Source of the DNA: a virus
IMG/VR virus record: IMGVR_UViG_3300028610_002494
Coordinates: 47,838 to 111,837 of that record
DNA length: 64,000 nucleotides
Strand: one strand, 5' to 3'
In this document: one piece after another, positions 10,588 through 52,307 of the stretch
Numbering within the stretch: the stretch's first letter is position 1
How the letters are laid out: every line of letters starts with the position of its first letter
The notes under the pieces: generated by a model
What the model saw: the letters and a program-made list of their open reading frames with translations, nothing else
The model's database searches: none
What the model was told of the DNA's origin: nothing
Translations under genes and position numbers: made by a program

Positions 10588-10614
10588 ACAAGGTTTATAT
10601 AAACAAGGTTTATA
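10583..10614. promoter_or_regulatory. TATAAAC-N3-GTTTATA dyad, tandem pair
   Basis: Two overlapping copies, 15-bp period, spacer AAG. Confidence 0.8.
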
Positions 10615-10678
10615 TAAAATAAAATAAAGTTAAATAGTAAAATAGTCTTTAAATAATTATAGAGGTTAAAAATTAAAT

Positions 10679-17609: not shown

Positions 17610-17706
17610 GTAAAAGAAATGGATAAACAAAAAAAGAAATAATTTTAAATAGTTAAATAGTCTTTAAATAATTAAGAAATAGAAAAAATTAATATATATT
17701 ATTATA

Positions 17707-18054
17707 TATGGAGTTGTAGTGTTGGAAGTTGATAACTCAGATGAATCCAAAAATAAAAAAACTCTGTGTGCTGTTAAGAACCCATCAATAAGATCCAATC
17801 AGAGTTGGTTCTATAACATATTTTTAGGGAATATATCAAAAAATAAACCAGATCACTCACACATAAAAGTAAATTGGATTATGCAACTTAATGAAAATGA
17901 AATTAATCTATTAAAAGAAAAAAGTTGTAAAGTAATAGAAATAGAAACTAAAATAAAAAAATCAATTAAAACAGGTGTGGAGATAAATGAACTCTAAATT
18001 AAACCAACTCCATAATTTATTTCTTGTCTCCACATCTGACCTAATTAAGAGTTG
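17707..18054 (+). ncRNA. Candidate structured RNA / structured leader overlapping ORF 17719-17997
   Basis: 15-bp helix 17972-17986/18024-18038 (2 G-U pairs); perfect 10-bp 17707-17716/18005-18014 pairing; follows the conserved promoter at 17644-17666. Confidence 0.35.
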
Positions 18055-18385: not shown

Positions 18386-19576
18386 ATGCAGGCTAAATTA
18401 AAAAGAATGGAATCTTTAATTTCACCATTACAATATGAAATACTGGAATGTTTATCTACTGGATCTAAAATAAGAGAAGATCTGGTAAAAGAACTAAATA
18501 CATCAAGAACTACTGTGTATGATAATCTTGAAAAACTTGAAAATAAAGGTATTATATTTAAAAGTTCTATATCAAATGGTTGTTGTGGAAGACCGCCAGT
18601 TCATTGGCAAATCAAACAAGCTCATGATTTGGTATTATTTAATGTTATAACTAAAAAAATTGGTGTTATAGGTTCAGGAGAATATAAAAAGAAAAAAATT
18701 GTTATTAGAAAACTTGAACAACTAATAGATAAACAAAGAGATATAATTGTTTCAGGACATAGTCCAAGAAATCCAATCTTTAAAGATGGTATATTAATAC
18801 GTTATAATAACGCTGATATATGGTCAGAAGATTGGGCATATGTATGGTGTCAAAATCCACCAATCATTCATCCAACTAAAGAATTTACAAGGGATGGATT
18901 TTTTGCAAGAAATAAATTAATTGCATTAGATTCAGAAGAATTAATTGTATTTATAAATAAACACCAATATCAATCTGGAGCTTGGAACACTGTAAAATAC
19001 TTTTTAGAAAAACCAGATTTTGACTATAATAACTTAACTATTTATGATGAATTTGGTAAAGAATTTGGAATACATGATTTACCAGAATGGTGCCAAAATA
19101 AAATAAAAATACCTGAACAAGAAACTCAATTATATAAATATTTATCTCAAATACGTTATTTAAAATCATTAGAAAAAGAAAAGAAAAAACAGAAAAAATC
19201 TTTAAATCCACAAAAAAAAGAAAAAGACTTAAAATCAACAAAATCTCTTAATAAAATAAATTCTTATATTTTAAATAATAGAAATTCAAAAATAACTAAA
19301 TTTGCTTTAGAAGAAATAGATAAATATACTTATTTTAGAACAACAACAATAAGTAAAATTTATATTAAGAAAATCTTGAAAATCAATAATATAAATGGAA
19401 CACTTAAGAGAAGTGTATCTAATAAAATTGGTCAAATTGTTGGAGAACTTAGAAAATTAGGAATTATTATAATGCATTCAAAAAGTACATGGAAAAATCT
19501 ACATAAAGATCAATTACATGTTGTTCTTAGTGAAAAAATGAAGAAAAATTATAATAAAACAATTAAAAAAGGCTAA
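18386..19576 (+). CDS. wHTH + SLOG (YspA/DprA-like) fusion protein
   Basis: N-terminal ELNTSRTTVYDNLEKLENKG...GRPPVHW; SLOG IGVIGS...IVSGH...ARNKLIA...SGAWNTV. Confidence 0.7.
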   Translation: MQAKLKRMESLISPLQYEILECLSTGSKIREDLVKELNTSRTTVYDNLEKLENKGIIFKSSISNGCCGRPPVHWQIKQAHDLVLFNVITKKIGVIGSGEYKKKKIVIRKLEQLIDKQRDIIVSGHSPRNPIFKDGILIRYNNADIWSEDWAYVWCQNPPIIHPTKEFTRDGFFARNKLIALDSEELIVFINKHQYQSGAWNTVKYFLEKPDFDYNNLTIYDEFGKEFGIHDLPEWCQNKIKIPEQETQLYKYLSQIRYLKSLEKEKKKQKKSLNPQKKEKDLKSTKSLNKINSYILNNRNSKITKFALEEIDKYTYFRTTTISKIYIKKILKINNINGTLKRSVSNKIGQIVGELRKLGIIIMHSKSTWKNLHKDQLHVVLSEKMKKNYNKTIKKG

Positions 19577-19579
19577 TTA

Positions 19580-20233
19580 ATGTCTAAAAAGAAAAAAGTA
19601 AGAGTTAGAAAAGAAAAAATTGCACTTACAGAAGAACAAGTTAAAGATTATCTTAAAACTATAAAAGAAGAAGATAAAAAACATAGTCATAGGAATTATT
19701 TGATGGCATTAACTTGGTTCAGCACAGGATTAAGAGTTGGAGAAATGTGTAATTTTATAGTTGGTTGGATTGAAAAAAGTAATGATAATTATATACACGT
19801 GAAACAAAATGAAGCACCATTTGTATTCGCACCAAAATATGGATCTACAAGAAGAATAGCTGTCCAAAAGGATTTAATTAAAGAACTGAGAAAATATTTA
19901 GCTGGAAGAACTAAAGGATATGTATTTAAACCACAATCTAACAATCAAACAAATCCTTATGCTAAATTTCATGACAAATCTCCAAATCCAATATTTAATA
20001 AATATTTCAGAGAAACAAAATCAATTGGAAGAAACCTTGGCACACATACATTTAGAAGAACTTTTGCTACTCAATTAGCATATAGTAAACCACCAGTTCC
20101 ATTGCCTAAAATTAGTTATTATCTTGGTCATAGAGACATACAAACAACATTAAATTATCTAAAGCAGATCACGAACGATGACCATACTGAACTCTTGAAT
20201 GTAGATTATATTAAAGATATATATAAATATTGA
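19580..20233 (+). CDS. Tyrosine recombinase/integrase (catalytic domain only)
   Basis: TGLRVGE; PKYG; HTFRRTFAT; LGHRDIQTTLNY. Confidence 0.92.
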   Translation: MSKKKKVRVRKEKIALTEEQVKDYLKTIKEEDKKHSHRNYLMALTWFSTGLRVGEMCNFIVGWIEKSNDNYIHVKQNEAPFVFAPKYGSTRRIAVQKDLIKELRKYLAGRTKGYVFKPQSNNQTNPYAKFHDKSPNPIFNKYFRETKSIGRNLGTHTFRRTFATQLAYSKPPVPLPKISYYLGHRDIQTTLNYLKQITNDDHTELLNVDYIKDIYKY

Positions 20234-25768: not shown

Positions 25769-25975
25769 ACAAAGTTTATAAAAATTAAAATTAAAGAGGT
25801 GAAAAAATGGAGAATGGAGATTTGAAGATACAATATAAAGTAGAACAGAGTATAGATTCTGTATTAGATAAAAAAATAGAAATTTTATTAAGATCTCTTG
25901 GATATAAATGGACAGGCAGTGGTATTTCTGTTCATGAAAACATAAGAGATATACAATTCATTAAAGAAAATTAAA

Positions 25976-26016
25976 TTTTTTTGTAAGTGTGCCAGACTTC
26001 CTGAGCACCAAAAAAA
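25976..26016 (+). repeat. Bulged-hairpin intergenic element, copy 1
   Basis: TTTTTTTG-TAAGT-GTGC-CAG-ACTTC-CTG-A-GCAC-CAAAAAAA. Confidence 0.9.
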
Positions 26017-26269
26017 TAAAACTAAAAGAGGTTAAAAAGATGAACTTAAAAAGAGAAATAATCTGTGAATATCTTATAATGTTTGGATGTATTATTATAA
26101 TCGGACTATATATAGGTGGACTCATAACAACAGCTGATTTCTATGTTTCAAATTTCTTAGATTCAACAATAATTATGATTCTTACAATTATAATTTTTAT
26201 GTTGGTATTTGAAAGACATTCACATAGTCTTAAATTATTAGCAGAAAAAGAAATAAAATAATAATTATT

Positions 26270-26310
26270 TTTTTTTGTAAGTGTGCTGGATTTCCCAAGC
26301 ACCAAAAAAA
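26270..26310 (+). repeat. Bulged-hairpin element, copy 2
   Basis: TTTTTTTG-TAAGT-GTGC-TGG-ATTTC-CCA-A-GCAC-CAAAAAAA. Confidence 0.9.
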
Positions 26311-26640
26311 TTAAATTAAAAGAGGTTTAAAATGACTGAATGTGAAAAAAGACTTGAAATCGTGAAAAAATGTTTTACTTATATTATATTACTTGTTTGT
26401 AGTGCTTTCCTTCTAACAGGAACTATATTATTTATCATACAATGGTATTACTATATTCCAAGTGATGCTATAACAGATATAATGATTATGATAGTTATTA
26501 CATGTGTTATTTATACAATGATTCCAACCATATGTTGGGTGATTTGGTATGTAAATGTATATTCCAAAATGTATATTCCTGTTAAAAAAAGCAAATATAC
26601 AGAAATGAAAAAGAAAATAAAAGAAATTGAAAAATAATAT

Positions 26641-26686
26641 ATTTTTTTTGTAAGTGTGTTTAGGTTTCCTGAGCACCAATAAAAAT
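26641..26686 (+). repeat. Bulged-hairpin element, copy 3
   Basis: TTTTTTTTG-TAAGT-GTGT-TTAG-GTTTC-CTGA-GCAC-CAATAAAAAT. Confidence 0.9.
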
Positions 26687-27321
26687 AAAGAAAAGAGTTG
26701 ATAATAAAATATGGGAAAATTACTGGAAAGATTTATTGATTTCTTTCATTATACACCAATTAAAGACGGTATTAGACAATCCTCTAAAAATATAGAAAGG
26801 AATGAATTAAATATAGAATACACAAATAAAGAAATAAAATCAACTGAACGACAATTATTTTACTTAAACAGTCTGAAAAACCACTTACTGGCAGAAATTG
26901 ATAAACTAAATGAGTGGAAAAAAGTTCTTAGTGATAAATTAGAAGACGAAAATAAAGAAAGAATAGTAGAAAAAAGTTTATTGTAAAAAAATTATATCCT
27001 GAATACAAAAAATATAAACAAGGTTTATAAAAATGAGTAAAAAAGAAAATAGATTTATAAAAATGAGTAAAAAAGAAAATAAAAAAGAAAAAAAAGAAAG
27101 ATTTTTTTTTAATTTAGAAAATTTAGAAATAGGAGATAATATATCAATGGAACCACTTAAAGTTGGAAGAATTTCTATTCCTATTCCAGAAGAAAATTTA
27201 GAACCACATTTTACTGAATTCGATAAAATTAAGGATGATTTTATTGATGATTTTTTATGGAAAAATTTAACAAATTCAAATAATAAAAAGGAAAAATAAA
27301 TATAAACAAGGTTTATAAAAA

Positions 27322-27636
27322 ATGATATTTTTAGGGTTTATTTTAATGATACTTCAAATTTTGGATATTATTACAACAAATATAGGACTAAAAAATGGAT
27401 GTAGAGAAAGAAATCCACTTATGAGAAAAATATATAAAACAAAAGTTCCACTTGGGATGATAATAATATTACAATTAAGTATGAGTATTTTACTTATTTG
27501 GGTTTTATCACTTAATTTTATAATAATAGCTTGGATTGTTTTTGGTCTTAATATTTTTCTGGTTGTTATAGTATCGTTAAATTTAATAAGTATTTATATT
27601 CAAAAAAAATATAATAAAAATGAGTGGTTGAAATGA
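27322..27636 (+). CDS. DUF5658-like membrane protein
   Basis: LDIITTNIGLKNGCRERNPLM plus TM segments. Confidence 0.65.
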   Translation: MIFLGFILMILQILDIITTNIGLKNGCRERNPLMRKIYKTKVPLGMIIILQLSMSILLIWVLSLNFIIIAWIVFGLNIFLVVIVSLNLISIYIQKKYNKNEWLK

Positions 27637-30368
27637 GTTGGCAGGAATTTAATGATATATTATTTGAGAAATTAAAAATCGAGAATCTTAAACCTGAATG
27701 GGTTGAGAATGGTTGTATAAAAATAAAAGACAAATATATATCTGTGATTATTAGAGTGTTAGAAGGTTATTTTGACAAGAAAGTAAATGGATTAATGATT
27801 GTTTGGGGATATGATAAAACATATAGGGAAATTGAACTTATAAATTTTACAATAGATGAATTAATAGAAAAAATAAAATTAATGATATTATGGTGAATGA
27901 TTATAAAAATGGATGGAAATTAAAAATGAATGATTTGATTTTTGTTGGATTAGTATTTGGTCTTGTTGGTTGGTTATTACATTTTATATTTATTATGACA
28001 GCTATGTTTAGCAAGATAAAATGGTTTATTTGGGTTGATTATAATAAATATCATGAAGGATACTTGGAAGTCATTTTAATCTCAATGGTTATAGGACTTT
28101 ATATAATAATTATAATTTTAGAATTTTAAGAGGATAATAATGAAATTAAACAAAACAGATTTTAACACATTGGATAAACTACTGAACAAAATAGGATTTG
28201 GTTCTTATTATGATCTGATTCAAATGCTAAAAGATACAGCATATAATATTCAACCAAAACTACAAGATAAATTAGAAAAAGAAACAGATTTATTAAAAAT
28301 AGTTAATTTGATTAGTAGATTATCACGTATTCTAAATAAAGAAAATAAAAAAAGTTATTTAACATGTTGTTGTGGTGGAATAGATTTTAAATTATTGAGA
28401 GAAATGTTAGTTTTAGATGACATAACTTCAGTGTGGAAATGCTTAAAATGTGGAAAAATAATAGAGGTTTAAAATGTTGGAAGAATTGCTTAAACGTATA
28501 AATAAATTACGTACTGAGTTATTTTTAGATGTTGACTTAAAAAGATATGAATATTCGAACGATGAACAAAGAGCAGAATTAAGAGAAAAATATAGATTAT
28601 TAAAGGACACAAATTGTTCACGTTGTGGTAAGAATTCAAGATTATTGAAAGTATTCTATGAACATTATAAAAAATACAAATTATTTATGTTTATTTATTA
28701 TAATATACCAAGAGAAATTGATATAAATCGTCTTAGATTATTGAGAGAATGTTAAAATGAGTAAAAAAGAAAATAAAAAGAAAGAACTAAAAAAATATTT
28801 TGATAAATGGAAAAATGAAGTAATAAATAATCCAAATTATGATGAACCAACCAAAAAATTTCTGCTCAGTTGTAAAAAAGATCTATATAGTTTGAATAAA
28901 AAAGCACTTAAAAATGGAATAACAATAGAAGAAATTGAAAAAATTGAAAGATATGCAAGTTATTTTTATTCTAAAACTTATGACAATTATCTTATAAGAG
29001 AATATAATGGTTTTGTTGCAGCAGGTATTTTTAAAATTCCTGCAGATCATAAAACTAAAGAAGTTAATCCAATTTTTATTTATGCTTGTGGTCATAATAA
29101 AGAATGGGATGATATTGAAGAACAAATTAATGTAGAACTAACTTTAGGAGAAGCAGAAGATTTAGTTAAATGTATTAATATATGTATAAAAATATTTAAA
29201 GAAAAAGAAAAAAATAAAAATGAGTAAAAAAGAACAACATATAGGAATTACTGAAGAAGATATAGAATTCTACAAGAAGTATCATCAATCTCGTATTGAT
29301 TCTGAAAAAAATGAAGAAAATATAATAGATGGAGAAGAATGTCCATATTGTAATGAACCAATAGATCCAATAGATATTATGGGAGACTCAGATTGGGATG
29401 ACCAACAATATAATTGGTATGAAGCTGAATGTGGTAAATGTGGCAAACAATACAAGATTAGACAATATGATGTAGAAACAATAAGAAGTTTTGAAACTAA
29501 AAAAGATGATTAAAAATGATTCATAAACCACAATCAATCAAAGAAATATTAGGAAGAATAGAAGTCATGGCTAAATTATATGAAGCTTGGAATGTTCTAA
29601 CTCTATTATATATTAAAACATTAAAAATTGGTAAAGATGATTGGGGAATGGACAGAAATAGAGAAATGTTAATATTTAGAGCTAAAGAATTCATACCAAA
29701 AATAAGAAATTTAATAGAACAAGTCATAGAATTATTTAAAAAAGATATAAAAGAAATGGTATAAAAATGAGAAAACTAAAAACAATACAAGAACCTGAAA
29801 AGAAATGTTATTATTGTTATTTCTTTCCATTTGATCAAGAATTTTCAACTGAAATGATTAAACGATGTGCAGAAAATTGGCTAAAAGCTGAAGACTGTCC
29901 TAATTGGAAACCATATAATGTATATTCATATATGAAAAACCGAAGGAAATTCAAAAAAGTTAAAATGATAAAAGGTTGAAAATATGATTGAAATTATAGA
30001 TAAAATTAATTATACCTGTAAAACAGTTGAAGATGATATTGATATGGTTATACATCCATTAAATAAAGAAACCACCTTTCTAAAAGATGTTGAATTAGAA
30101 GGACACCAAATTATAGGTGTAATATTTAAATAAAAATAAAAAAAGAGGTTAAAAAATATGAACCTAAAAAATTGGTTGAAGAAACACTACAAATCCTTAA
30201 TATGTTTGATAATTAATAGTGTTATACTATTAATTACTATAATATTAGCAAATCTTGTTTTTGCATATATTGTATTTGGAATATTTCTAATTATTACTAT
30301 ATATTTTTTGATTAGTGTTATAATCCTTGAATACCAAATAAAAAAATCAAATAAGGAAATTGTTGAAA

Positions 30369-30620
30369 ATGAGTAAAAAAGAAACAATTAACCATCCAAA
30401 ACATTATAACATAGGAATATTTGAAGTTATAGATATTATTGAAGACTGGGATCTTGGATTCCACCTTGGAAATGCTGTAAAATACATTGCCAGAGCTAAA
30501 CATAAAGATAATGAAGAAGAAGATATAAAGAAAGCTATATGGTATTTGAAAAGATACTTAAAAAGAGAAAAATATAAAAAAATAAGAAAACTAATTAAAG
30601 AGGATTTAGATAATGTCTAA
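30369..30620 (+). CDS. DUF3310 family protein (T7 gp1.7 nucleotide kinase-related)
   Basis: INHPKHYN...EVIDII...GFHLGNAVKYIARAKHK...EDIKKAIWYL. Confidence 0.85.
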   Translation: MSKKETINHPKHYNIGIFEVIDIIEDWDLGFHLGNAVKYIARAKHKDNEEEDIKKAIWYLKRYLKREKYKKIRKLIKEDLDNV

Positions 30621-30805
30621 AAAAGAAATACAAAATTTATCAAATCAAATTGACAAGCTTTCACCAATGGAATTTTCTAAGTTATGCCTAAAGGTTATTA
30701 AAAAAATAATGAGAAGGCAAAATAGTGAAACAATTGAAAATTCAACTGAAAAAAATGATAAAAGGGTTTTAATTGACCTAATGATTAAAAATGATATAAA
30801 AATAG

Positions 30806-31543
30806 ATGAAAAAGAGGAAAAAATTGATTCTTAAATTGTCAAAACAGTTTATTGAGGAAATTACTCCATTTGAAACAATTTATTGTCAACAATCAGGTGG
30901 AATTCATTCTTCTGCTATTGCATATTTATTAAAAGATTATGGTTTTAAAAATGTTTCACTCATTCATAACTTAACATATTTAGAATATCCAGAATGTTTG
31001 AATCTAATTCAAAGAATTATTTATGATACAGATTATTCTTATAATTTGATATATCCTAATCTTAAAGGAAAGAGAATGTCTGAAATTATGAAAGAATCAT
31101 TTTTAGCAATACCAAAAATAAAAAAAGGACTAAAAGATGGAACAATTAAATCAGGAAACGTCCGAGACCATATAACTTGTTGTAAATTCCTTAAAAAGAC
31201 TTCAAGTAGAATATGGTACACTAAAAACATTAATAAAGAGACCAGTGTTGTTATTATGGCAATAACACCATATGAAAGTAAGAATAGAAAGAGACATCTT
31301 ACTGAATTAAGAAGAAAAAGGACTTATCTTAGACTACACAAAAAACACGGAAATGTATGGCATGCATATCCATTTAGAGATATTTATAGTGGATATCATT
31401 TTTATAAATATTTAATGAGTAAAAATGTAGTTCCAATACATAGTAGTTGTCAAATCTGTCCTATGAGAATAATTTTTAATATGACTTATCCAGATGATAA
31501 GACACTTTTGTATTACAGAAAACTAAAATCAGCTGGAGATTGA
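30806..31543 (+). CDS. PAPS reductase-like / PP-loop protein
   Basis: SGGIHSS; TYLEYPE; CCKFLKK; SSCQICP. Confidence 0.7.
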   Translation: MKKRKKLILKLSKQFIEEITPFETIYCQQSGGIHSSAIAYLLKDYGFKNVSLIHNLTYLEYPECLNLIQRIIYDTDYSYNLIYPNLKGKRMSEIMKESFLAIPKIKKGLKDGTIKSGNVRDHITCCKFLKKTSSRIWYTKNINKETSVVIMAITPYESKNRKRHLTELRRKRTYLRLHKKHGNVWHAYPFRDIYSGYHFYKYLMSKNVVPIHSSCQICPMRIIFNMTYPDDKTLLYYRKLKSAGD

Positions 31544-31759
31544 AATTAAATCAAAAAACTTACCTGAAGAATGAAAAAATGTGAAAAATAATGGAAGGCA
31601 TAAGAAAACCAAGAATAAATAATAAATTAAGGGATGTAATGATAACACTTAATAAACTTAATAAAGAAGGAACAATTAATAGTTTAAGTGTAATTCCAAG
31701 TGGTATAAATGCTTGTGCTAATTATGATTATATTTCGTTTAAAATACCAAAAAATAATA

Positions 31760-31850
31760 TATAAACCTTGTTTATATAAACCTTGTTTATACAATCCTAT
31801 TATAATAAAAATATTTATATTTAAAAGTAGTTATTAAATAATTAAGGAAA
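31760..31850 (+). promoter_or_regulatory. Tandem dyad plus promoter module, duplicated at 52217-52307
   Basis: Two dyads (spacer CTT). 31775-31850 is nearly identical to 52232-52307, including the TATA box and AAGTAGTTATTA. Confidence 0.8.
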
Positions 31851-32185
31851 AATAGTTAAATTAAAATATAAATAGAGTTGAAAAAATGTTTGCAATAGAA
31901 CATGAAACAGATTGGATAGAAGGAGAATGTATTTCTATAAGTTTAAAAGAAGAAGAAACATTTCTTGGTAATCATAATGAAGATTTTAAATGGATCGCAG
32001 AAAAAACACTTCATTATGGTGGTGATACTATTGATAAAACATATTATAGAATCACAAAGAATGGAATATATATTAAGTTCTTCAGAAAAGAAGATGAAGG
32101 AATATATGGTATCCATTTTGTTCCACACGATAATATAATATTATTTGAAGTATATGAAAAAAAGAATAACTAAAAAAATGATAAA

Positions 32186-33082
32186 ATGTCAAAAAACACA
32201 TTTAAAAACACATTTAAAAATAGGAAAAAGATAAGAAATCTTCAACAAAATAAAAGAAAACCTAAGAAATTAGTTTTTAATCCTAAAAAATATAAATTCA
32301 AGTGTTTACAATGTGGAAATTGTTGTAGTACACTTTTAGATAATGCAATGATTAGTCCTATTCCATCTTTCAATCATAAAGGAATTTTTGTAAAAAAACC
32401 AAAAAATGGAGTTATTATATTTCAGTTTGAGATTGATAAAATAAAACGAAATCTTACTCAAGAACAATTATCAAAAATTAATTATGGAACTACTATTTTT
32501 TTGAAAGATTATCCTGTTGGGTTTGTTGCTACATATCAAATAGAATACAACAAATATGGTCATTGTAGTTTTTTTGATTTCAGGACAAAAAAATGTAATA
32601 TCTACAATTTTCGACCTTTTTCATGCAGACTACATCCTCTTTTTTATTCAGGTAATTTTACGTTTACTATGGGTGGTGGCGACTTAAGTAGATGCAAATC
32701 AATTCAATCAGAAATTGCACACCAAAATTCTATAAATATTGAAAATATAGATATAACCCATTTTGAGTTTTCAGATAATGAATTAATACATTCCTTTCCT
32801 TCTTTTACACAAGAAAAATTAAAGATAGTACAAATAGACTTAGTTGGACATATATTTTTAGATTATTTTTTTGATATTATTATATTAGATCCAATCCAAT
32901 TAACTCCAAATAGAATAGAAATATATAAACTTTTAGATTTTAAAAATTTTACAAAATGGTTTAAAATTAATATAAAAAATAAAAAATTATTAGAAAGATT
33001 AAATAAATACCAAGAAGAATTAAATGATTTCAACCAAACAGGAGATATATTTAATAAAAAATATTTAAAAATAATTAAATAA
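32186..33082 (+). CDS. YkgJ/UPF0153 cysteine-cluster protein
   Basis: FKCLQCGNCC...CSFFD...CNIYNFRPFSCRLHP. Confidence 0.85.
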   Translation: MSKNTFKNTFKNRKKIRNLQQNKRKPKKLVFNPKKYKFKCLQCGNCCSTLLDNAMISPIPSFNHKGIFVKKPKNGVIIFQFEIDKIKRNLTQEQLSKINYGTTIFLKDYPVGFVATYQIEYNKYGHCSFFDFRTKKCNIYNFRPFSCRLHPLFYSGNFTFTMGGGDLSRCKSIQSEIAHQNSINIENIDITHFEFSDNELIHSFPSFTQEKLKIVQIDLVGHIFLDYFFDIIILDPIQLTPNRIEIYKLLDFKNFTKWFKINIKNKKLLERLNKYQEELNDFNQTGDIFNKKYLKIIK

Positions 33083-33093
33083 AAGGTATAAAA

Positions 33094-34887
33094 ATGAGTA
33101 AAAGATTAAGAAAATATATAATAACATCTAAAGAAGAAGAAAAATTAATAAAAAGGGCACTGAAAAAAAGAGAAGAAAAAATAATTGATTATTATTCACA
33201 ACAAAAAGAAAATGAAGATTTAAACGAAATAGAAGATGATATTTTAGCTTATTTTGATGTTGATGATGAATGGTATCATTGTAAAGGATATAATTATTAT
33301 GGTGAAACAGAAGGATTATTCTTGAATTCTTGGAAATTATTAGTTGATAGTTATTTAAAATCTGATTTAATAGAAGATTTTCTTTATATCCTTGAAGATC
33401 TTTCAGTTGGTATAATTTGTGGATGGACTAAAGAAACAAAAAAATTTGATGAAATAATAAAAAAAATAAACAAGTATTCTATAGAAGTTCATAATATTGA
33501 TATTAATGAATGTTTAGAAGAAATTGGTAAAACAAAAAGAAAACAATATAAAATAGATAAAAAGAACTATGATGAAAGAAAAGAAGAACAAAGAAAACAT
33601 GAAGAAAAAATACTAAAAGAATCAGAAATTGATTTTAGTAAGTTTGATAAAAAAGACTTTGAATTGTGGAACAAAATAAAAAAAAGATTACATCCTTCTA
33701 ATTATTTAAGACTAAATGAAGAAGTTTATAGAAAAAAAACCAATAAAGAAATACAGGAAATATTTAACATAATCAAAGAAAATGAATTAAAAAATGACAA
33801 TAAATCAAAAGAACAAGTTTTAAAAGAAAAAAATTATTGGAAATTAGATGTATATGATTTAGAAAGATATAATGGGATTTCTTTACAACAATTAACTAAA
33901 ATTGAGATTAGTTTTTTAACATTTAATGGAATTATATTATGGAAAGATGTATTATTATTCTTAAAAGATGAAATTGATGCATCGGATGGATTTCTTGACG
34001 ATGAATTTCATACAGGTGGTTATTCTTATTCTCATGTTGGTCAAGAAGGTAATGAATTACAAGAATTAACATCAATTGGTGTAATTAAACCAAGTCTTGA
34101 TTATGATTGTAATTTAGGAAATAAACACTATACACATGGATGCAAACATATGTATTATTTTCATTTAACAATAGAAGGAAAAAGATTTATTGATTTTATG
34201 AATTGGCATAATGAACACTATACTTCAGAAGAAATAAATATCATAAAAAATGAATCATTAAATTATTTTTATTATGATCCTGAATTTAAAGAGATATATC
34301 AAGAATATCTACAATTAAGAAAAAAAGAAGAATATAAAATTGAAGAAAATGAAGAAATATTACAAATAAGTAAAATAAAAAAATTAGGTTATTCTAAAAG
34401 TTATCCTAAAGAAAAAATCTATAAATCTGATAACTGGAAAATAAGATCAGAAGAAATTAGAAAAAGAGATTCACAAATAGACTTATTAAGGTTATTTGAT
34501 GATGGTATTATAACAAAAAGTGAACCTATTCACCATATATTTCCTATAAAGTTTTTTCCTGAAATAGCTTTAGAACCATATAATTTAATAGCATTAGATA
34601 TATCTCATCATAAAAGTATTTATAAGGATTACAGAAATCCTTTAGATTTATTTAAAAGAATGATTGAAATACATAAAATTTGGAGAAATCATAAGAAAAA
34701 ATATGGGGAAAAAATATTAATGAAAATAATTTCTATTATTTCAAGACAGTATGAAATAACAACCAACCTTGAAAAAATAAAAACTAAAAAGAAAAATTAT
34801 ACAAAAGAATTAGGAACACTAACAAAAAAGATTGATGTTCTTGAAAAAAAAACAATAAATAATATTAAGAAAATCTTACCTATATAA
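33094..34887 (+). CDS. Large protein with C-terminal HNH endonuclease domain
   Basis: YKSDNWKIRSEEIRKRD...IHHIFP...NLIALDISHH. Confidence 0.6.
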   Translation: MSKRLRKYIITSKEEEKLIKRALKKREEKIIDYYSQQKENEDLNEIEDDILAYFDVDDEWYHCKGYNYYGETEGLFLNSWKLLVDSYLKSDLIEDFLYILEDLSVGIICGWTKETKKFDEIIKKINKYSIEVHNIDINECLEEIGKTKRKQYKIDKKNYDERKEEQRKHEEKILKESEIDFSKFDKKDFELWNKIKKRLHPSNYLRLNEEVYRKKTNKEIQEIFNIIKENELKNDNKSKEQVLKEKNYWKLDVYDLERYNGISLQQLTKIEISFLTFNGIILWKDVLLFLKDEIDASDGFLDDEFHTGGYSYSHVGQEGNELQELTSIGVIKPSLDYDCNLGNKHYTHGCKHMYYFHLTIEGKRFIDFMNWHNEHYTSEEINIIKNESLNYFYYDPEFKEIYQEYLQLRKKEEYKIEENEEILQISKIKKLGYSKSYPKEKIYKSDNWKIRSEEIRKRDSQIDLLRLFDDGIITKSEPIHHIFPIKFFPEIALEPYNLIALDISHHKSIYKDYRNPLDLFKRMIEIHKIWRNHKKKYGEKILMKIISIISRQYEITTNLEKIKTKKKNYTKELGTLTKKIDVLEKKTINNIKKILPI

Positions 34888-34914
34888 ACCTTGTTTATAT
34901 AAACTCTGTTTATA
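34883..34914. promoter_or_regulatory. Tandem dyad upstream of helicase
   Basis: Spacers CTT and TCT. Confidence 0.8.
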
Positions 34915-34953
34915 ATTATCCTTTTAAACCCATAAGATAATATATATTTATCT

Positions 34954-37032
34954 ATGTCTATTTTTAGTCAACTTAAAAAAATTAATCCACTTAAATTGGA
35001 TGAATATTTAGAAGACTCTTGGTTGTTGAGTTATGAAGAAGGAATTAATTTAACTCATTATTATGTCAAAAAACTCATTAAAAACATCCATGTTGATTCC
35101 CATTTAAAATTAAGATGGTTGATACTTAACGATAAATATAAAAAAGCTTTTTTTAGTTCTACAAGAATCCATTTATTCCGAACCCATACAGGTTCAGGGA
35201 AAACTGTCACAAGTGTGATGTGGGTTAAATTTTTGACACAATTAAGTTCCAAAATTGAAGGATTTGTGGTGCTTTCTGCTGAATATGATCATGGCACTAC
35301 TGAGATAGAAAAAATTATAATAAAACACGGAAATCAGGTTGATTATATTAGGTTTGAAGGAAAAAATAGGTTATGTACTCAACGACATATCAAAATAAAC
35401 AAAAAAGGAACAACAATTGAGACTTTAATGAAAAATGGAATCTCAATCAAGAGATATTGTGAAAATGATTGTCCAGAATTAAAAACCTGTATATATAAAT
35501 GTAATTGTGCTCAAGTTATAGCACCAATAGAAAAAGGTGGTATTAAGAATTGGATTGGAGTCCAACACCAAATTGGTCATTTCTTACCAATTTTTATGTA
35601 TCATGTTGGAAATATTTTCCTTGTTATAGACGAGAATTTTTCAGACGCAATTAAGGAACACCACAAATATGGAGTACCAATACTAAAAGAAAATATTAAG
35701 TTTTTAAATATGATATTAAAAAATATAAATCCAATAGTTGAAGAGAATTATTGGTATTTTGTGAATGAATTTAAAAAGCTTTTAACTAATTTTAAACAAT
35801 ATTTATTTAAACACTTAACAGAACTTGATTATGAATTAATTGGAGATATTTTAGACAATATAGACGATTCTAAAGGAATAGATAATCTTTATACTGATAA
35901 ACTAAATGAACAAGCATTTGATTATGTAAAAAATGGTAAAATTAAACCATTTAAATTCATTTTTGGAGAAATCTGTAATTTCATAGATAACTATGAGGAA
36001 TTATTAAACTCTAATTATGATGATATTAATAACTGGATGAGAGCGAGTTTCTATAAAAAACAAGATAAGTATGAGATAACATTTTTGTACTATGATAAAT
36101 ATAAACTGGATGCTTTGTTTAACAGAGATAATTTAACCAAATTGATAATTAATGATGCCACTGCTAATAAGATTGAATTAAGCTATTTAATTGGTGATAA
36201 AGAACCAGTAATTGAACACAATGAAAATTGGATGTATGAGAATTGTGAGTTTCATCAACTTAATAAAAGAGTTAATGTACAAAAAATTAATGCCAAAAAT
36301 AATAGAGAATATAAGAAATTTGCTCATTACCCTAAAACATCATTTATGTTTGAAAAGACTTTTTTTTATTTGATTGGAGATCTAAAAGTAATCTTAGAGC
36401 GACACAAGGATGAACCTGTGCTTGTTGTGGCAAGAGAAATAGAAGGAAAAGATCTCAAATTCAATGGTGGAATAAAACTTTCTGATTATATTCAAACTTT
36501 AGGATATAATAATGTTATTTTTGAGGATTATCCACTCAAAGCAACTAATGAATATTCTGATATTAATGTAGTGGTATTATTAGGTAAACCAGAATTGCCA
36601 ACAGCAGTAATTAAAAGACAATCCACTTTAATAGGTATGGAACATAATGAATATAGAGAAATGTACTCTAAGACTAATATGGTTCAAGCAATAGGACGTA
36701 TTATGCGTGGAAATGAACTAAAATATGTTTATATTCTTACTGGGTTTGATTTGAAGTTGAATAGACCAGTAAAAAGCTATAAAAGTCATACAGATTTGAG
36801 AAATAGTCTTTTGGCTGAGATTAAAGCTATTAAAATAAAAAAAATTGAGATCTTTAGATATAATATAATATCAACCTATATAAAAAAACACAAATATATC
36901 ACAATAAAAAAATGTGAAGAACTGTTTAAGATATCAAACTATAAAGCAAGTATAATCCTTAAAAATTTTGAAAAGCAAGGAAAACTTAAATCCAAGAAAA
37001 TTGAGAGAGGAAGGTTTGTTTTCACATTTTAG
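34954..37032 (+). CDS. SF2 (DinG/XPD-like) Fe-S helicase with C-terminal wHTH, putative replication/origin-binding protein
   Basis: Walker A TGSGKT; GKNRLC...YCENDC....C.Y; LVIDE; DAT; QAIGRIMR; C-terminal HTH-like tail. Confidence 0.75.
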   Translation: MSIFSQLKKINPLKLDEYLEDSWLLSYEEGINLTHYYVKKLIKNIHVDSHLKLRWLILNDKYKKAFFSSTRIHLFRTHTGSGKTVTSVMWVKFLTQLSSKIEGFVVLSAEYDHGTTEIEKIIIKHGNQVDYIRFEGKNRLCTQRHIKINKKGTTIETLMKNGISIKRYCENDCPELKTCIYKCNCAQVIAPIEKGGIKNWIGVQHQIGHFLPIFMYHVGNIFLVIDENFSDAIKEHHKYGVPILKENIKFLNMILKNINPIVEENYWYFVNEFKKLLTNFKQYLFKHLTELDYELIGDILDNIDDSKGIDNLYTDKLNEQAFDYVKNGKIKPFKFIFGEICNFIDNYEELLNSNYDDINNWMRASFYKKQDKYEITFLYYDKYKLDALFNRDNLTKLIINDATANKIELSYLIGDKEPVIEHNENWMYENCEFHQLNKRVNVQKINAKNNREYKKFAHYPKTSFMFEKTFFYLIGDLKVILERHKDEPVLVVAREIEGKDLKFNGGIKLSDYIQTLGYNNVIFEDYPLKATNEYSDINVVVLLGKPELPTAVIKRQSTLIGMEHNEYREMYSKTNMVQAIGRIMRGNELKYVYILTGFDLKLNRPVKSYKSHTDLRNSLLAEIKAIKIKKIEIFRYNIISTYIKKHKYITIKKCEELFKISNYKASIILKNFEKQGKLKSKKIERGRFVFTF

Positions 37033-37065
37033 AAAAAATTAAATTATATTTTAATACTTCCAACC

Positions 37066-37171
37066 TCTAAAACCCAGTTTTAAATTTTTTCTCCTCTCTA
37101 TAAAATTATTATATTCTTTTCTCTTTACTATTTTGTAGAGAGAACAACTTCTTTTAAAACTGGGTTTTAGA
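37066..37171. repeat. Nested inverted repeat (candidate replication origin)
   Basis: Perfect 19-bp IR TCTAAAACCCAGTTTTAAA / TTTAAAACTGGGTTTTAGA enclosing a 13-bp IR (37094-37106/37130-37142, 1 mismatch), in the longest non-coding gap. Confidence 0.75.
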
Positions 37172-37550
37172 AACTTCTATTCATATCAAGTGATACCCAA
37201 AAAATCAAAAAAATTATTTTTTCCATTATCTGGTGTACATTTAGTATTTTATTTATATTGTTCTGGTATCTTGTTTCATAATTTAAGTGTTCTAATTGTG
37301 TAAACAAAACTAAACAAGGTTTAATTTTTTTAAAAAAAATAATTATTTTTTATGATTATTTTTTGATAGAAAACCATAGTAGAAGATTTAAGTACATAAT
37401 AGAACATATAAACATTGCAGACACAATAATTTTTCAAAAGTTGGTGTAAAGCTTGTAAAAAAAAATGTATGTAAAAAATTAAGAAAAACGACATTTTAAA
37501 CGATTTTTTATTTTTTTTAGAATATTTATATTTTTAAAGAAATGCATTTC

Positions 37551-37591
37551 ACAAAAGTATATATGTATAAATAGTCTTTATAGAATTAAGG
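37551..37591 (+). promoter_or_regulatory. Conserved archaeal promoter (BRE-TATA-AAATAGTCTTTA); TATA boxes also at 10629, 17644, 40910 and 46048
   Basis: In five intergenic sites a TATA-like octamer begins exactly 11 nt before an identical AAATAGTCTTTA 12-mer. Confidence 0.75.
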
Positions 37592-37637
37592 AAAAAAAAT
37601 TTAAAAAATAACCTAAAAAACTAAGGAGTTGGTTTAA

Positions 37638-39194
37638 ATGGGAGAAAGAACAGATTTTGTAATGGCACAGGAACTTTTAAAGAGTGTTATTTTTGATCAA
37701 GCAGGCAGTGTTATTAAAGCTATTGAAGAACTATTCCAAAATAGTATTGATGCTGGTGCTACTAAAATAGAAATTATAATAAATAAGGAAGGAATGATAT
37801 TTTCAGATAATGGAAAAGGAATGAACAAAAAAGAAATTAATACTTATTTTAGACAATTTGGAAATTCAGCAAAAGCAGGAGACTCAACCAAAATAGGTAA
37901 ATATGGAATTGGAAGAGGTCAAGTATTTGCTCAAGGATGGAATAGGTGGAGAACTCAAACTTTTATGATGAGAACAAATTGTAAACAGAGTTTATCATAC
38001 AGACTAAAAGAAAGATTAATACATTTAAATGGAATGAGTGTTTATGTCATGTTCTATGAAAAAATGGATAATTGGACATATGACAGAACTGTTTCATTAA
38101 TTAAGGAATATGTTATTCCTAAAAGAATTGAAATAACTATAAATGGATCAAAATTCACTGAGGAAGATGCTGGAATAACAAGAATTGATGATTATAGTAA
38201 TGAGTCTTTTGAAGTATTTGAAAGTTGTTTGTATGAAAGACGAATTTTTGCCCAAGCATTATTTGTAAAGAAGTTTAATACTACAACTAAATACAATATT
38301 AATTGTAAAGGAAAAATGAAGTTAAATACCGCAAGAAATGATTTACACGAAGACAGGAAATCAACTAAAGAACTTTATGATTTAATTGCAAGAATTGAAA
38401 GAGAAGAACTTTTGAAAGCTAAACGATTTGATGCAACAACAGGAAAACAAATTCTTAAATACATAAGGAATGGAAAGCTAAACATAATTGATTTTATGGA
38501 TAAAAAAATAATTGAATTAGCTGATGGAGAATTGGTTTCGATAAAAGATATTAATGGTAAAAAAGTGATGTTTGGTGAAAAGAATGATACTTCTGATCGA
38601 GCAATTCAAGCAGGATATATAGTAGTTAATAACAATTTTAAATGGGTTCTAACTGAATTAAGTAAACAGAAAAAAGTTGGATATACAAGAGATTATAGAA
38701 GTCCTGCTGAAGTAGTTCCAAAAGGTTATCGTAAACAAATAGAAGAAGCAAGACTTTTTAAAACTCACGGTAAAAAAGCTTTATTACATTGGTATTTAGC
38801 AAAAGAAATGAACAAAAGAATATTTGGAGATGAAAGAGAACTTTCAATTGGTTCTTCTGATATTGCAGAAGCTTGGACTGATGGACATTATAATATAACA
38901 CTAAATGCAAGTATGTTTAAGAAAAGAGACAAACGAGGAGTGGTTGTTATGAATGTTTTTCATGTTCTTTGTCATGAGTATGCTCACGAGAATGATGATA
39001 CAAATGAAACAAGTCATGATGGAAACTTTTACAAACGATACTATGAATTGGTTGAACAAAAGAAGAGAAGAATTGGTGATTTTGTTGTTTTTGTTGGTCT
39101 TAGAGAAATTGAGAGAAATTATAAACAAGATATTGAAGATGATATCTTTAGTGCAAAATTATTAAAAACTAATAGAAAAAAAAGAAGTGGTTAA
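37638..39194 (+). CDS. GHKL (Hsp90/MORC-like) ATPase with C-terminal HExxH metallopeptidase-like motif
   Basis: EELFQNSIDAGA; DNGKGM; GKYGIG; HVLCHEYAH...SHDGNFY. Confidence 0.8.
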   Translation: MGERTDFVMAQELLKSVIFDQAGSVIKAIEELFQNSIDAGATKIEIIINKEGMIFSDNGKGMNKKEINTYFRQFGNSAKAGDSTKIGKYGIGRGQVFAQGWNRWRTQTFMMRTNCKQSLSYRLKERLIHLNGMSVYVMFYEKMDNWTYDRTVSLIKEYVIPKRIEITINGSKFTEEDAGITRIDDYSNESFEVFESCLYERRIFAQALFVKKFNTTTKYNINCKGKMKLNTARNDLHEDRKSTKELYDLIARIEREELLKAKRFDATTGKQILKYIRNGKLNIIDFMDKKIIELADGELVSIKDINGKKVMFGEKNDTSDRAIQAGYIVVNNNFKWVLTELSKQKKVGYTRDYRSPAEVVPKGYRKQIEEARLFKTHGKKALLHWYLAKEMNKRIFGDERELSIGSSDIAEAWTDGHYNITLNASMFKKRDKRGVVVMNVFHVLCHEYAHENDDTNETSHDGNFYKRYYELVEQKKRRIGDFVVFVGLREIERNYKQDIEDDIFSAKLLKTNRKKRSG

Positions 39195-39427
39195 AAAATG
39201 TTATACAAATTATTTATTGATGATATGAGAAATGCTATTTCTCATGCTTATTTAACTCGAAGTGTTCAAGAGAATATTAAAATAAAGATTAGAGCTATTG
39301 AATCTTGTTTTAATACTTGGGTTAATCGATTAAATAAATCTGAGAAAAGAGTATATAAGGAAGACATAAATTCTTTCAGAGAGGATTTAAAAGCAATACT
39401 AAAAGAAATTTATAAAAACTAATTGAT

Positions 39428-39474
39428 TTATTTTTTTGTAAGTGTGTTTAGGTTTCCTTAACACCAATAAAAAT
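39428..39474 (+). repeat. Bulged-hairpin element, copy 4
   Basis: TTTTTTTG-TAAGT-GTGT-TTAG-GTTTC-CTTA-ACAC-CAATAAAAAT. Confidence 0.9.
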
Positions 39475-40085
39475 AAAATTACAAAAAGAAGGTAAATAAA
39501 AATGAATTTAACAGAAAAAGGAAAAGAACAAACAAAATTAATCTCGAAAATGTTAGCTGATATTAGAACCGAATTTATGAAAGCTTTTCTTAATTTTGAA
39601 GAAAAGGATATTATCCTAATTCTTGATATAAAATATATGAAACAGAGTTTTATGAGATGGGTAAATAAAAAATAAGAGGTTAAAAGAGAATGGAAAATAT
39701 TAGACCAAGAAATGAAATAAGAGCTTTATGTCCACGGTGTGGAGGATCATATAGTGGATACCCTGCTTTAAGTCGTCGTGATAACAAAAGTAAGATATGT
39801 TCTGATTGTGGAAACGAAGAAGCGATATTTGATCTTAAGATGCATCTATGGGATGATGAAAAAGAAAAGAAAGAATTAATAATAAAAGAAAAGAAGTGGT
39901 TAGAAATGTCTAAAAAAAGTGAAGTAATTATATGGGAAGGATTTAAGTGGACAATGGAAGAAGGAGAAACTGTGGATGATGTTATAGATAAACTTAATGA
40001 TGGTGCAATAACTTCCTATGCAAACCATTTCATAAAAATTACTGATTTAAATGGAATTGTACTTAAAGAAATAAATATTTAATTT

Positions 40086-40128
40086 TTTTTATTGTTAGTG
40101 TGCCAGATTTCCTGAGCACCAATAAAAA
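40086..40128 (+). repeat. Bulged-hairpin element, copy 5
   Basis: TTTTTATTG-TTAGT-GTGC-CAG-ATTTC-CTG-A-GCAC-CAATAAAAA. Confidence 0.9.
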
Positions 40129-40401
40129 TAAAGAAAAGAGTTGATTAAAAATGGTTAAAAAAGAGACTATGGAAAATTATAAAAAAGAACTTTTTGATTT
40201 AGCATTACATCTTGAAAATTGGTTAAATGGAATTGTTATTGAATCTTGGGATGCAGAAAATTTAAGAAATAGAGTAGTTAGTAAGATTCGTCTTTTTAAA
40301 CAAGATGGACATACTGATGTATTTCATCCTGATATTGATCGTGGACAAGTAGTAGAAAGAATGAAGGAACAGAATGTTAAATCATAAATATAAAAATAAA
40401 T

Positions 40402-40445
40402 TTTTTATTGTAAGTGTGTTTAGGTTTCCTGAGCACCAATAAAAA
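40402..40445 (+). repeat. Bulged-hairpin element, copy 6
   Basis: TTTTTATTG-TAAGT-GTGT-TTAG-GTTTC-CTGA-GCAC-CAATAAAAA. Confidence 0.9.
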
Positions 40446-41113
40446 TAAAAAACTCAAAAGAGGTGTAAATTATGGTTGAAGAAGTTAAAGCTTATAAAAC
40501 AACAGATAACGTTATATTTGAAAATGAAAAAAATGCTAAAAAACATCAAATAGAAATAGATTTTGATGATGGATTAAAAAAGTTAGTAGAAAAACACATA
40601 TCATATTATGATAATGAAGTTATGGTATTTGATTTCATTAAAGAACATAAAATAGAAATATTTAATTTATTATTATTAAAAAACATTTAAAAGAGAATAA
40701 AAAATGCCAGAATGTATGGAATGTGGAAAGGATATTGAATTAACCCAATGGAACATTTGGAATATATTTCATATTTGTTATGAATGTGAAGAACATTTGA
40801 ACGAAAAAGCAAGGTGTCCATATTGTAATGGATATTTTCCATGTCTTAGAGCATCAAAATTTAAGGAACATATTGAAAATTGCAGAAAAAATAAAAAAAT
40901 TCACAAAAATTTAAATGTATAAATAGTCTTTACAGATTATAGAGAGAACGTCAGTAGTAAAAAAATTTTGAGTTTATATAAATAACCTATGAATAGAGAC
41001 GAAATTATAAAACATGAGAAAAAAGCCTGTACTATGCGAAACATTTATATACTTTATTTCTACAGAGGGATAATTTAAGTAAATTGAAAAATAAAATTAA
41101 AAGAGATAAAAAA

Positions 41114-46019: not shown

Positions 46020-46087
46020 TTTTAGTTAAAAATCCATTTTACAAAAATTTATATGTATAAATAGTCTTTATAAAATTAAGAATAAAA

Positions 46088-52216: not shown

Positions 52217-52307
52217 TATAAACGTGGTTTATATAAACCTTGTTTATACAATTCGATTATAATAAAAATACTTATATTTAAAAGTAGTTATTAAATAATT
52301 AAGGAAA
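52217..52307 (+). promoter_or_regulatory. Tandem dyad plus promoter module
   Basis: Spacers GTG and CTT; near-copy of 31760-31850. Confidence 0.8.

Follow-up and report, generated by a model that had tools for sequence, protein, structure and literature searches.

A bulged hairpin on the gene-sense strand between small genes of a Promethearchaeota-linked virus: a possible RNA processing signal and exchange point for gene cassettes

In the virus recorded in IMG/VR as IMGVR_UViG_3300028610_002494, some of the small accessory genes are followed by a conserved, bulged hairpin of about 45-50 nt, which fills spacers of 65-85 nt within long same-strand apparent operons. In this paper we describe this hairpin from a window of 64,000 nucleotides (the whole stretch of DNA that was analysed, which is the final 64 kb of the 111,837-nt contig, positions 47,838 to 111,837 of the record) and from relatives of the virus. 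A model-based alignment of 77 copies, 71 of them distinct sequences, shows that the fold of the gene-sense strand is under selection. We tentatively read the hairpin as an RNA processing or stabilising element, a reading that we would place a little short of probable. Comparison between relatives shows exchange of gene cassettes at the repeated copies, which act as patches of homology, a secondary effect that corresponds to the role described for the promoter-early stem-loop (PeSL) cassettes of T4-type phages. Positions below are those of the window unless the genome is named; L numbers denote relative loci or contigs, and G numbers denote the metagenome-assembled genomes (MAGs) that bear the element.

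Copies, anatomy and covariation of the hairpin

The core pattern AGTGTG-N6/7-TTCC-NN-ARCACCAA has six matches in the window, all on the + strand, where 100 shuffles gave an expectation of 0.00. These are the six junctions named in an initial annotation of this DNA, and they form two clusters, copies 1-3 and copies 4-6 (Table 1). The count of six holds for the window; the whole genome has eight, since two further solitary copies lie outside it at genome positions 26068 and 44511, and all eight are on the gene strand. Two covariance models, one from 8 copies and the other from 77 copies, each recovered exactly the eight genome copies, and at the same loci the + strand scored 65-79 bits, versus 21-30 bits for the - strand. 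Mean column identity among the eight is 86% (alignment A1). Rfam gave no match at gathering scores across the 64-kb window, and near cluster 1 it returned only noise at E ~1, none of it on the hairpins.

Table 1. Hairpin copies, cassette genes and other features of the window. CM, covariance model; MFE, minimum free energy.
Feature	Position	Strand	Evidence and remarks
Hairpin copy 1	25970..26025; stems 25976-26016	+	CM R1 71.7 bits; MFE fold -13.1 kcal/mol
Cassette gene, copies 1-2	26040..26261	+	73-aa membrane protein, ORFan; hydrophobic segment
Hairpin copy 2	26264..26319; stems 26270-26310	+	CM R1 74.7 bits; alignment A1; fold
Cassette gene, copies 2-3	26332..26637	+	101-aa membrane protein, ORFan; L164 homologue 49% identical
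Hairpin copy 3	26637..26693; stems 26643-26684	+	CM R1 79.4 bits; alignment and fold
Hairpin copy 4	39425..39481; stems 39431-39472	+	CM R1 77.4 bits
Two-gene cassette, copies 4-5	39502..40082	+	57 aa and 130 aa; not in L159
Hairpin copy 5	40081..40136; stems 40087-40127	+	CM R1 74.3 bits; fold -15.3 kcal/mol, z = -4.0
Cassette gene, copies 5-6	40151..40387	+	78 aa, ORFan; not in L159
Hairpin copy 6	40397..40453; stems 40403-40444	+	CM R1 79.3 bits; fold -17.0 kcal/mol
XerA-like tyrosine recombinase, catalytic domain only	19580..20233	+	217 aa; Pfam PF00589 (Phage_integrase) E = 3e-17
Promoter-like module (AAATAGTCTTTA... motif)	37569..37588	+	Upstream of operon with copies 4-6; context only

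The anatomy first proposed (an outer T/A stem, a bulge, a GTGY/RCAC stem, a variable inner stem and a loop) was borne out by the folds and by the alignment. The lower, or outer, stem of 8-13 bp is formed by a T-run and an A-run (U/A in RNA) and is followed on the 5' side by an unpaired, near-invariant bulge of 5 nt, N-W-A-G-U (TAAGT, TTAGT or CAAGT in the genome copies). The upper stem has 7-9 bp and consists of a GTG(Y)/(R)CAC part and then of freely covarying distal pairs, its variable inner portion reading CAG/CTG, TGG/CCA, or TTAGG/CCTGA with G·U. The loop has 3-5 nt and includes a conserved UUCC (TTCC in DNA). Copy 1 folds into the outer stem, the 5-nt bulge and the inner stem, and the TGG/CCA inner stem of copy 2 is a double compensatory change relative to copy 1. 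Copy 3 has an inner stem of 9 bp with two G·U pairs and an outer stem with one T-T mismatch. The MFE RNA folds give the proposed shape in six of the eight genome copies (not in copies 4 and 5), at -12 to -17 kcal/mol, and leave the Shine-Dalgarno sequence, or ribosome binding site, unpaired. The least variable positions are A-G-U of the bulge (invariant), three pairs on each side of it and TCC of the loop, and conservation reaches ~9 nt past the outer stem (ATAAAWWWA).

Covariation was measured on the 71 distinct sequences. Paired cells amount to 90%, versus 43-51% when the partners are slid, both sides change in seven pairs with 66 double-compensatory cells, and the observed covariation was reached by none of 500 shuffles. 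One upper-stem pair is AU in 34 sequences, UA in 25 and GC in 10, and adjoining upper-stem pairs are distributed as CG 44, UA 12 and UG 11, and as GC 63, CG 3 and AU 2. The lower stem covaries too (AU 53, UA 8, GC 1 and GU 2 at one pair, plus six T-T mismatches) and is thus a real helix, more than a terminator beside an A-rich leader. The covariation is modest when limited to the six or eight local copies and becomes strong, in both stems, with the 71 sequences that the search of relatives with the covariance model provided. On the sense strand G·U pairs outnumber A·C by 49 to ~16 (~3:1), after two columns that the aligner had mispaired in a shorter variant were set aside. This excess points to the gene-sense strand as the folding strand and agrees with the earlier suggestion that the G-U pairs favour RNA.

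The placement of the hairpin is equally regular. All 76 non-duplicate copies are co-oriented with the flanking open reading frames (ORFs), and in the MAG locus L207 a three-copy array and its genes lie together on the minus strand amid plus-strand genes. From the stop of an upstream ORF of at least 35 codons to the lower stem the median distance is 8 nt (range 0-25; 46 scorable cases), and from the end of the stem to the next ORF start it is 26 nt (74 cases), mostly with a Shine-Dalgarno sequence in between; the spacing to the ATG varies from 9 to 36 nt. Copy 1, for example, is directly preceded by the stop of the gene at 25807-25974, and the next ATG is at 26040. Neighbouring copies are mostly 265-790 nt apart, the length of one or two small genes, and such arrays are found in relatives as well.

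The eight genome copies sit between ORFan genes of 55-130 aa. Ten cassette and flanking proteins gave only sub-threshold matches in Pfam, none at the gathering cut-off. Genes of one small family do occur near both clusters, as had been noticed, with 43% identity between 25595 and 39906 (E = 6e-13), and the C-terminal half of the 130-aa cassette protein between copies 4 and 5 belongs to this 25595 family. A membrane or signal segment is present in about one third of the proteins encoded downstream of hairpins. Secreted proteins of ~127 aa, with an MKNKK start and a signal segment, form a diverse family encoded downstream of hairpins in L129, L139, L128, L138 and L131; time and again the hairpin and an almost identical 5' leader stand ahead of its genes. 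The small membrane, secreted or ORFan genes beside hairpins are candidates for functions in host interaction or anti-defence.

Gene exchange at the hairpins and their distribution

The hairpins had been proposed to delimit exchangeable single-gene units, and the relatives L159, L164 and L162 do differ from this genome by whole genes; gene order between hairpins is not fixed. The order in L159 is A-hairpin-D-hairpin-E, versus A-copy 4-(B,C)-copy 5-C'-copy 6-D-E in this genome, where the D-E junction is tight, and the L159 equivalent of copy 4 directly precedes the homologue of gene 40472. Collinearity with cluster 1 is kept in L164, apart from an extra promoter-like module and a gene that lie after the homologue of gene 26040 and before the second hairpin, while in L162 (70-90% identity) the small genes of 25.4-30.6 kb follow another order. 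For gene 25807, the hairpin is downstream in this genome, whereas in L157 and L209 it precedes the homologue. A different hairpin, with core GGTTTAATCTCTGAYCGATTCGATTAGGGAGA and short T/A arms, was observed behind the homologue of gene 25807 (the copy 1 position) at 1512-1550 of L157 and on the minus strand of L162 (~2990-3030); this second type was not repeated elsewhere among the loci examined.

Across all pairs taken together, the left half of the hairpin is more alike between copies with homologous upstream genes, and the right half between copies with homologous downstream genes. Where the flanks are 93-97% identical, breakpoints are scattered: some coincide with the 5' or the 3' edge of the hairpin, others lie in its centre, 21 nt ahead of it or beyond the start codon. 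Three pairs, with flanks otherwise 94-97% identical, have just the inner-left arm or the hairpin core swapped, with the pairing kept, and in some pairs identity extends through the 5' untranslated region as far as the start codon. Copy 5 had been described as a mosaic of the left arm of copy 1 and the right flank of copy 3. Its right flank is indeed identical to that of copy 3 over 35 nt, reaching the ribosome site, but only the inner-left arm is common with copy 1, the outer-left arm being of TTATTG type. This pattern of breakpoints is what would be expected of recombination and gene conversion between repeats of ~85% identity; it is compatible with a fixed crossover point but does not require one. 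As shown by comparison of the contigs, the copies serve as portable homology patches for the deletion, insertion and swapping of single-gene cassettes. Thirteen of 36 whole contigs end at most 130 nt from a copy, versus ~7 expected. No small circular contig with a cassette was present among 42 loci, which is weak evidence.

Besides the eight copies in this genome, a pattern scan and the covariance model found 69 additional copies on marine-sediment metagenome contigs and on contigs of five Promethearchaeota MAGs. The strict-pattern metagenome scan yielded 42 contigs from AT-rich marine and subsurface sediment assemblies, including a LAZR01 marine-sediment contig. In a collection of 185,579 species genomes, model-supported matches occurred only on contigs of the five MAGs; the remaining 22 pattern matches failed the covariance model. 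Each element-bearing MAG (3.5-5 Mb) has 1-3 copies, in ORFan-rich contexts with few small genes in common with the virus, and the hairpin is present in 2 of 151 sampled genomes of Promethearchaeota, a phylum within the Asgard kingdom. This distribution assigns the hairpin to a set of mobile elements linked to Promethearchaeota, not to the host chromosome at large. Pattern scans of IMG/VR gave at least 119 single chance matches with the loose pattern and two chance matches in GC-rich DNA with the strict one, and no relatives; a protein search of IMG/VR with the topoisomerase and a near-identity search of GenBank phages with 15.5 kb also found none. On the MAG contig G005:C23, a tRNA-Leu(CAG) gene (L209:16981-17075) lies ~5 kb from two hairpin copies, and the island that bears them may have integrated there. 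In L207 (~8650-8810, minus strand) a 53-aa ORF directly downstream of a hairpin resembles the C-terminal RuvC-III piece of TnpB/IS605 OrfB (...NADVNGAYNI...) and is probably the remnant of an insertion sequence.

The virus and its hairpin-bearing relatives are linked to Promethearchaeota (Asgard archaea). IMG/VR lists the record as a virus with direct terminal repeats, and the contig ends overlap by 144 nt, which closes a circle of 111,693 nt. The genome has a G+C content of 25% and essentially all its genes on the + strand, and it encodes a family B DNA polymerase, helicases, a DNA methyltransferase, a type IA topoisomerase and a single tyrosine recombinase. An ORF for a surface protein of 3,579 aa spans the contig ends (window 55018-63999, on to genome 1901); the protein includes a sialidase-like carbohydrate-binding domain and, at its C-terminus, a membrane anchor and then a basic tail. 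The two 597-aa proteins are not paralogues.

Other modules occupy other junctions of this genome. The promoter-like motif AAATAGTCTTTAAATAATTA and its variants occur in eight genome copies ahead of gene blocks; such modules lie at window 10583-10678, 17640-17718, 31760-31885, 37566-37637, 46056-46080 and 52217-52300 and at genome 26726, and are often preceded by one or two TATAAAC-N3-GTTTATA dyads. They are probably the main promoter/operator set of the virus, and for the module at 37569 the TATA-like content and the position ahead of gene blocks suggest a promoter. The dyads contain the canonical archaeal TTTATATA, and a host tRNA gene has a TTTATACA box at the expected place. Perfect dyads, TATAAAC-AAG/CTT-GTTTATA, also stand alone at small-gene junctions near cluster 1 (window 22354, 24269, 25764, 27013, 27301, 34883, 34898 and others), where they seem to take the place that the hairpin has at other junctions. 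A T-run joined straight to an A-run (T6+A5+) was seen in seven cases, six of them intergenic, with none in the reverse order; examples lie at genome 18882, 20317, 22232 and 24771 (L001/L002) and at window 37325, and resemble the hairpin element minus its core.

Candidate functions of the hairpin

The initial annotation had offered three functions, RNA processing or stabilisation, integron-like recombination and mimicry of CRISPR repeats. The first fits best, on the grounds of the sense orientation in 76 of 76 copies, the G·U excess, the position in apparent operons, and RNase III in the hosts, where RNase III-domain proteins (~245-250 aa; PF14622 above cut-off) are encoded by four of the five element-bearing MAGs. 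The enzyme would be available in these candidate hosts, which speaks for feasibility and is not evidence of cleavage. The hairpin forms on the gene-sense strand, most probably within polycistronic RNA. There it may be cut once by a double-strand-specific endonuclease, with the bulge restricting cleavage to one strand, and the upstream message would then keep a hairpin that protects its 3' end; alternatively, the hairpin may act as an exonuclease barrier. Either way, the outcome would be separate message stabilities for neighbouring small genes.

Several observations weigh against RNA processing. A T7-9 run precedes the hairpin, directly after each stop; T-runs are archaeal terminators, and runs of this length should stop many polymerases before the hairpin is made. 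The helix, 16-18 bp plus a bulge, is about as small as RNase III is known to accept, and neither RNase III nor Cas6 was found in the virus genome. With 8 of ~165 genome junctions carrying it, the hairpin is not a general punctuation system. Furthermore, G·T wobbles are tolerated in folded single-stranded DNA too, so the strand bias is no strict proof of RNA, and the sequence-conserved bulge with its adjoining pairs suggests a specific protein partner that reads the folded strand.

If the T-run terminates the upstream transcript, the genes that follow must have their promoter within the element, and a composite cassette acting at the level of DNA is then the better model. The T-run would be a terminator, the A/T-rich arms would hold a weak TATA box and B recognition element (TATA/BRE), and the inverted repeat would modulate them, making the element a direct archaeal counterpart of PeSLs, of the modules of HF2 or HGTV-1, or of the motifs ahead of early anti-defence genes in archaeal viruses. 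This is an explanation with some force that we nevertheless think unlikely. Termination is expected from the T7-9 after each stop, T-runs are enriched ~3-fold in intergenic DNA, and the T-run/A-run order prevails by 7 to 0 over its reverse. The conserved nucleotides beyond the outer stem, and the identity up to the start codon in some pairs, also speak for it, and the published analogues carry promoters (PMC8707807, PMC3950731, PMC11065993, PMC2839356). The element itself, however, has no canonical TTTATATA box or TATA/BRE, for all its A/T-rich arms, although that box is present in other intergenic modules of the genome. The Shine-Dalgarno sequence follows the A-run by 10-15 nt, so that a TATA box in the A-run would put the start site at or after it, and the distance to the ATG is variable. 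A duplex operator explains neither the distal covariation, the one-sided 5-nt bulge nor the G·U excess. The hairpins also lie inside the blocks that promoter-like modules bound, copies 4-6 being between the motifs at 37569 and 46059, which makes a main promoter role unlikely, though not impossible.

The hairpin could instead be a selfish palindromic repeat, of the repetitive extragenic palindromic (REP) kind or like a miniature inverted-repeat transposable element (MITE), whose presence in spacers is no more than tolerated as it moves through related mobile elements. In favour of this, the imperfect palindrome is short and highly conserved and occurs in varied gene contexts, on otherwise unrelated MAG contigs, with gene conversion between copies and with presence or absence at homologous junctions, and it resembles an insertion between a T-run and an A-run that are found joined elsewhere. 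We judge a selfish origin improbable. REPs and bacterial interspersed mosaic elements (BIMEs), like MITEs, occur both ways round, whereas every copy here is in the sense orientation and has a fixed place between stop and Shine-Dalgarno sequence. A Y1 transposase (RAYT/IS200-type; PF01797) had no match in the virus or in four of the five MAGs, and copies are few, with 1-3 per MAG and only two positive genomes among the 151 sampled from the phylum.

A slightly slimmer chance is given to folded single-strand recombination sites, an integron analogue for cassette capture in Asgard-associated viruses, in which a minimal XerA-like recombinase would act on sites unlike attC. Single-gene units are bounded by imperfect, one-orientation hairpins with extrahelical bases, in arrays of 2-3; the sense bias would mark the folding DNA strand, and the way in which hairpin halves track their flanks could reflect a crossover in the hairpin centre. 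Cassettes are present or absent between relatives, and the tyrosine recombinase is 2-6 kb upstream in this genome and in the syntenic L131 and L162. The gene at 19580 does encode a tyrosine recombinase, as had been annotated (Table 1), and the genome has no second gene of this kind; the distance to the nearest hairpin (copy 1) is 5.7 kb. Its product has only a catalytic domain, however, and scored 66 bits with the NCBIfam XerA model, against a cut-off of 220, and 29.8 bits with the integron integrase model (integrase_gron), against 265. It does not adjoin the arrays, two hairpin copies are solitary, and no recombinase was recognised beside the L207 array in the part of that locus scanned. On either strand the stem has TTG...CAA at its inner ends, where the R boxes of attC would have AAC...GTT, and it has no equivalents of those boxes. 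Plain homologous exchange would suffice between copies of ~85% identity; the breakpoints are not at one point, one of them being 21 nt upstream of the hairpin, and small circular contigs were not seen among the 42 loci. The recombinase gene is in frame with that of a 396-aa winged-helix protein (together 18386-20233), with one TAA stop and one codon between them; a fragment of this winged-helix gene adjoins the hairpin array in L207 (10542-10745).

Very improbable is a solitary mimic of CRISPR repeats, that is, an RNA anti-CRISPR that would sequester the Cas6 or effector proteins of the host: the 5' tail, the hairpin and a ~8-nt A-rich 3' tail do resemble structured CRISPR repeats, and the neighbours are small, potentially anti-defence ORFan genes, but no contig among the 185,579 species genomes had array-like multiple matches to the core pattern, the U-run and A-run arms covary within the structure, which a repeat mimic does not need, and the 37-nt repeat by cas1 in G004, whose reverse strand ends ATTGAAAC, is unlike the hairpin (one host array examined). 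That array lies at L221:1-196 (G004:C68), beside cas1 in a hairpin-bearing MAG, and has the repeat GTTTCAATCTTCTTTTTGAAGCTATTTATTCTGTGAC at a spacing of 74.

Other candidates were rejected. A duplex operator for a dimeric protein is ruled out by the distal covariation within one genome together with the one-sided bulge, and a bacterial-type intrinsic terminator by the lack of a T-run after the hairpin on either strand. As judged by eye, K-turns, box C/D elements, bulge-helix-bulge motifs and tRNA-like minihelices do not apply, since the hairpin has none of the features that they require (G·A pairs, 3-4-3 geometry, a free CCA end).

Relation to known systems and significance

The hairpins had been presented as an undescribed system, which is an overstatement: analogous repeated hairpin or regulatory cassettes have been published for T4-type phages and haloarchaeal viruses. 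One of the closest known parallels is with the PeSL cassettes of T4-type phages (Arbiol et al. 2010, PMC2839356; Comeau et al. 2014, PMC4122927). In both, a short, conserved, non-coding stem-loop module is repeated between small ORFan genes of hyperplastic regions, insertions, deletions and swaps between close relatives end at the module, and the copies are recombination linkers. PeSLs, however, have a sigma-70 early promoter and a bacterial-type terminator stem-loop, whereas the hairpin has no recognisable promoter, its T-run precedes the stem-loop, the flanking runs pair with each other, and a one-sided bulge is conserved; the domain of the host differs as well. Mini-circles have been demonstrated for PeSLs; here the exchange was seen by comparing contigs.

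Intergenic repeats have also been described in tailed viruses of archaea, namely the class I and II repeats of HF2, which have measured promoter activity (PMC8707807), and a TATA-plus-inverted-repeat motif of HGTV-1, as cited in PMC3950731, and crenarchaeal viruses have early-gene regulatory motifs that precede anti-defence genes (PMC11065993). These are likewise conserved modules of 30-100 nt ahead of many small genes, some with inverted repeats, and are associated with variable, possibly anti-defence genes. They differ in being defined by a BRE/TATA core, whereas the hairpin lacks a canonical TATA box, lies within operons and is constrained by pairing on one strand.

For the RNA processing that we favour, the natural comparison is with the RNase III sites of the early and late mRNAs of phage T7 (R0.3, R1.1 and others; Dunn and Studier 1983, as cited in PMC1540722), where, because of a bulge or internal loop, RNase III makes just one cut and the product keeps a protective 3' hairpin (PMC1540722). 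The T7 sites are also hairpins between cistrons, with an upper and a lower helix split by unpaired bases; the corresponding parts here are of 8-13 bp and 7-9 bp with a 5-nt bulge, about two helix turns, at the lower size limit. The helix of the hairpin (16-18 bp) is shorter than that of T7 sites, its unpaired bases are a pure 5'-side bulge in place of the internal loop of T7, and its candidate enzyme is the RNase III of the archaeal host; cleavage of the T7 type is a prediction by analogy here.

Integron attC sites, like the element described here, are imperfect hairpins with extrahelical bases, and they too enclose single-gene cassettes that all face one way. The hairpins have no R''/R' boxes (RYYYAAC ... 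GTTRRRY), the base being TTG ... CAA in 71 of 71 sequences on either strand, and there is neither an IntI-type integrase nor an attI/Pc platform here. Moreover, attC sites are alike in structure only, whereas the hairpins are alike in sequence.

REP/BIME elements are imperfect palindromes of 35-45 nt that are transcribed after stop codons in operons, stabilise the upstream mRNA and are recombination hot spots. REPs occur in hundreds of copies and in both orientations, with a GTAG head and a link to the RAYT transposase. The hairpin, too, is a sequence-conserved imperfect palindrome after stop codons within operons, but it has few copies, one orientation and a head of NWAGT, and the Y1 transposase had no match in the virus or in four of the five MAGs.

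Repeated hairpin or regulatory modules at which genes are exchanged, with ORFan genes on their flanks, have been published for T4-type phages and suggested for haloarchaeal viruses. New here are the architecture, in which the U/A arms pair and a one-sided bulge is invariant, the degree to which the stems covary, the link to Asgard-associated elements, and the absence of a recognisable promoter. The 77 copies and the models R1 and R2 define a family of cis-elements that is absent from Rfam and supported by covariation, and that occurs specifically in mobile elements with a link to Promethearchaeota. For these archaea there has been hardly any experimental work on gene expression or on virus biology. 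In practical terms, the hairpin breaks metagenome assemblies, as the contig ends near copies indicate, which is useful to know when these viruses are assembled. If the hairpin is an RNA processing or stability signal, it would offer a handle on mRNA maturation in Asgard archaea, for example on the role of RNase III, and the "linker" by which T4-type phages shuffle their accessory genes would operate in this lineage of archaeal viruses too.

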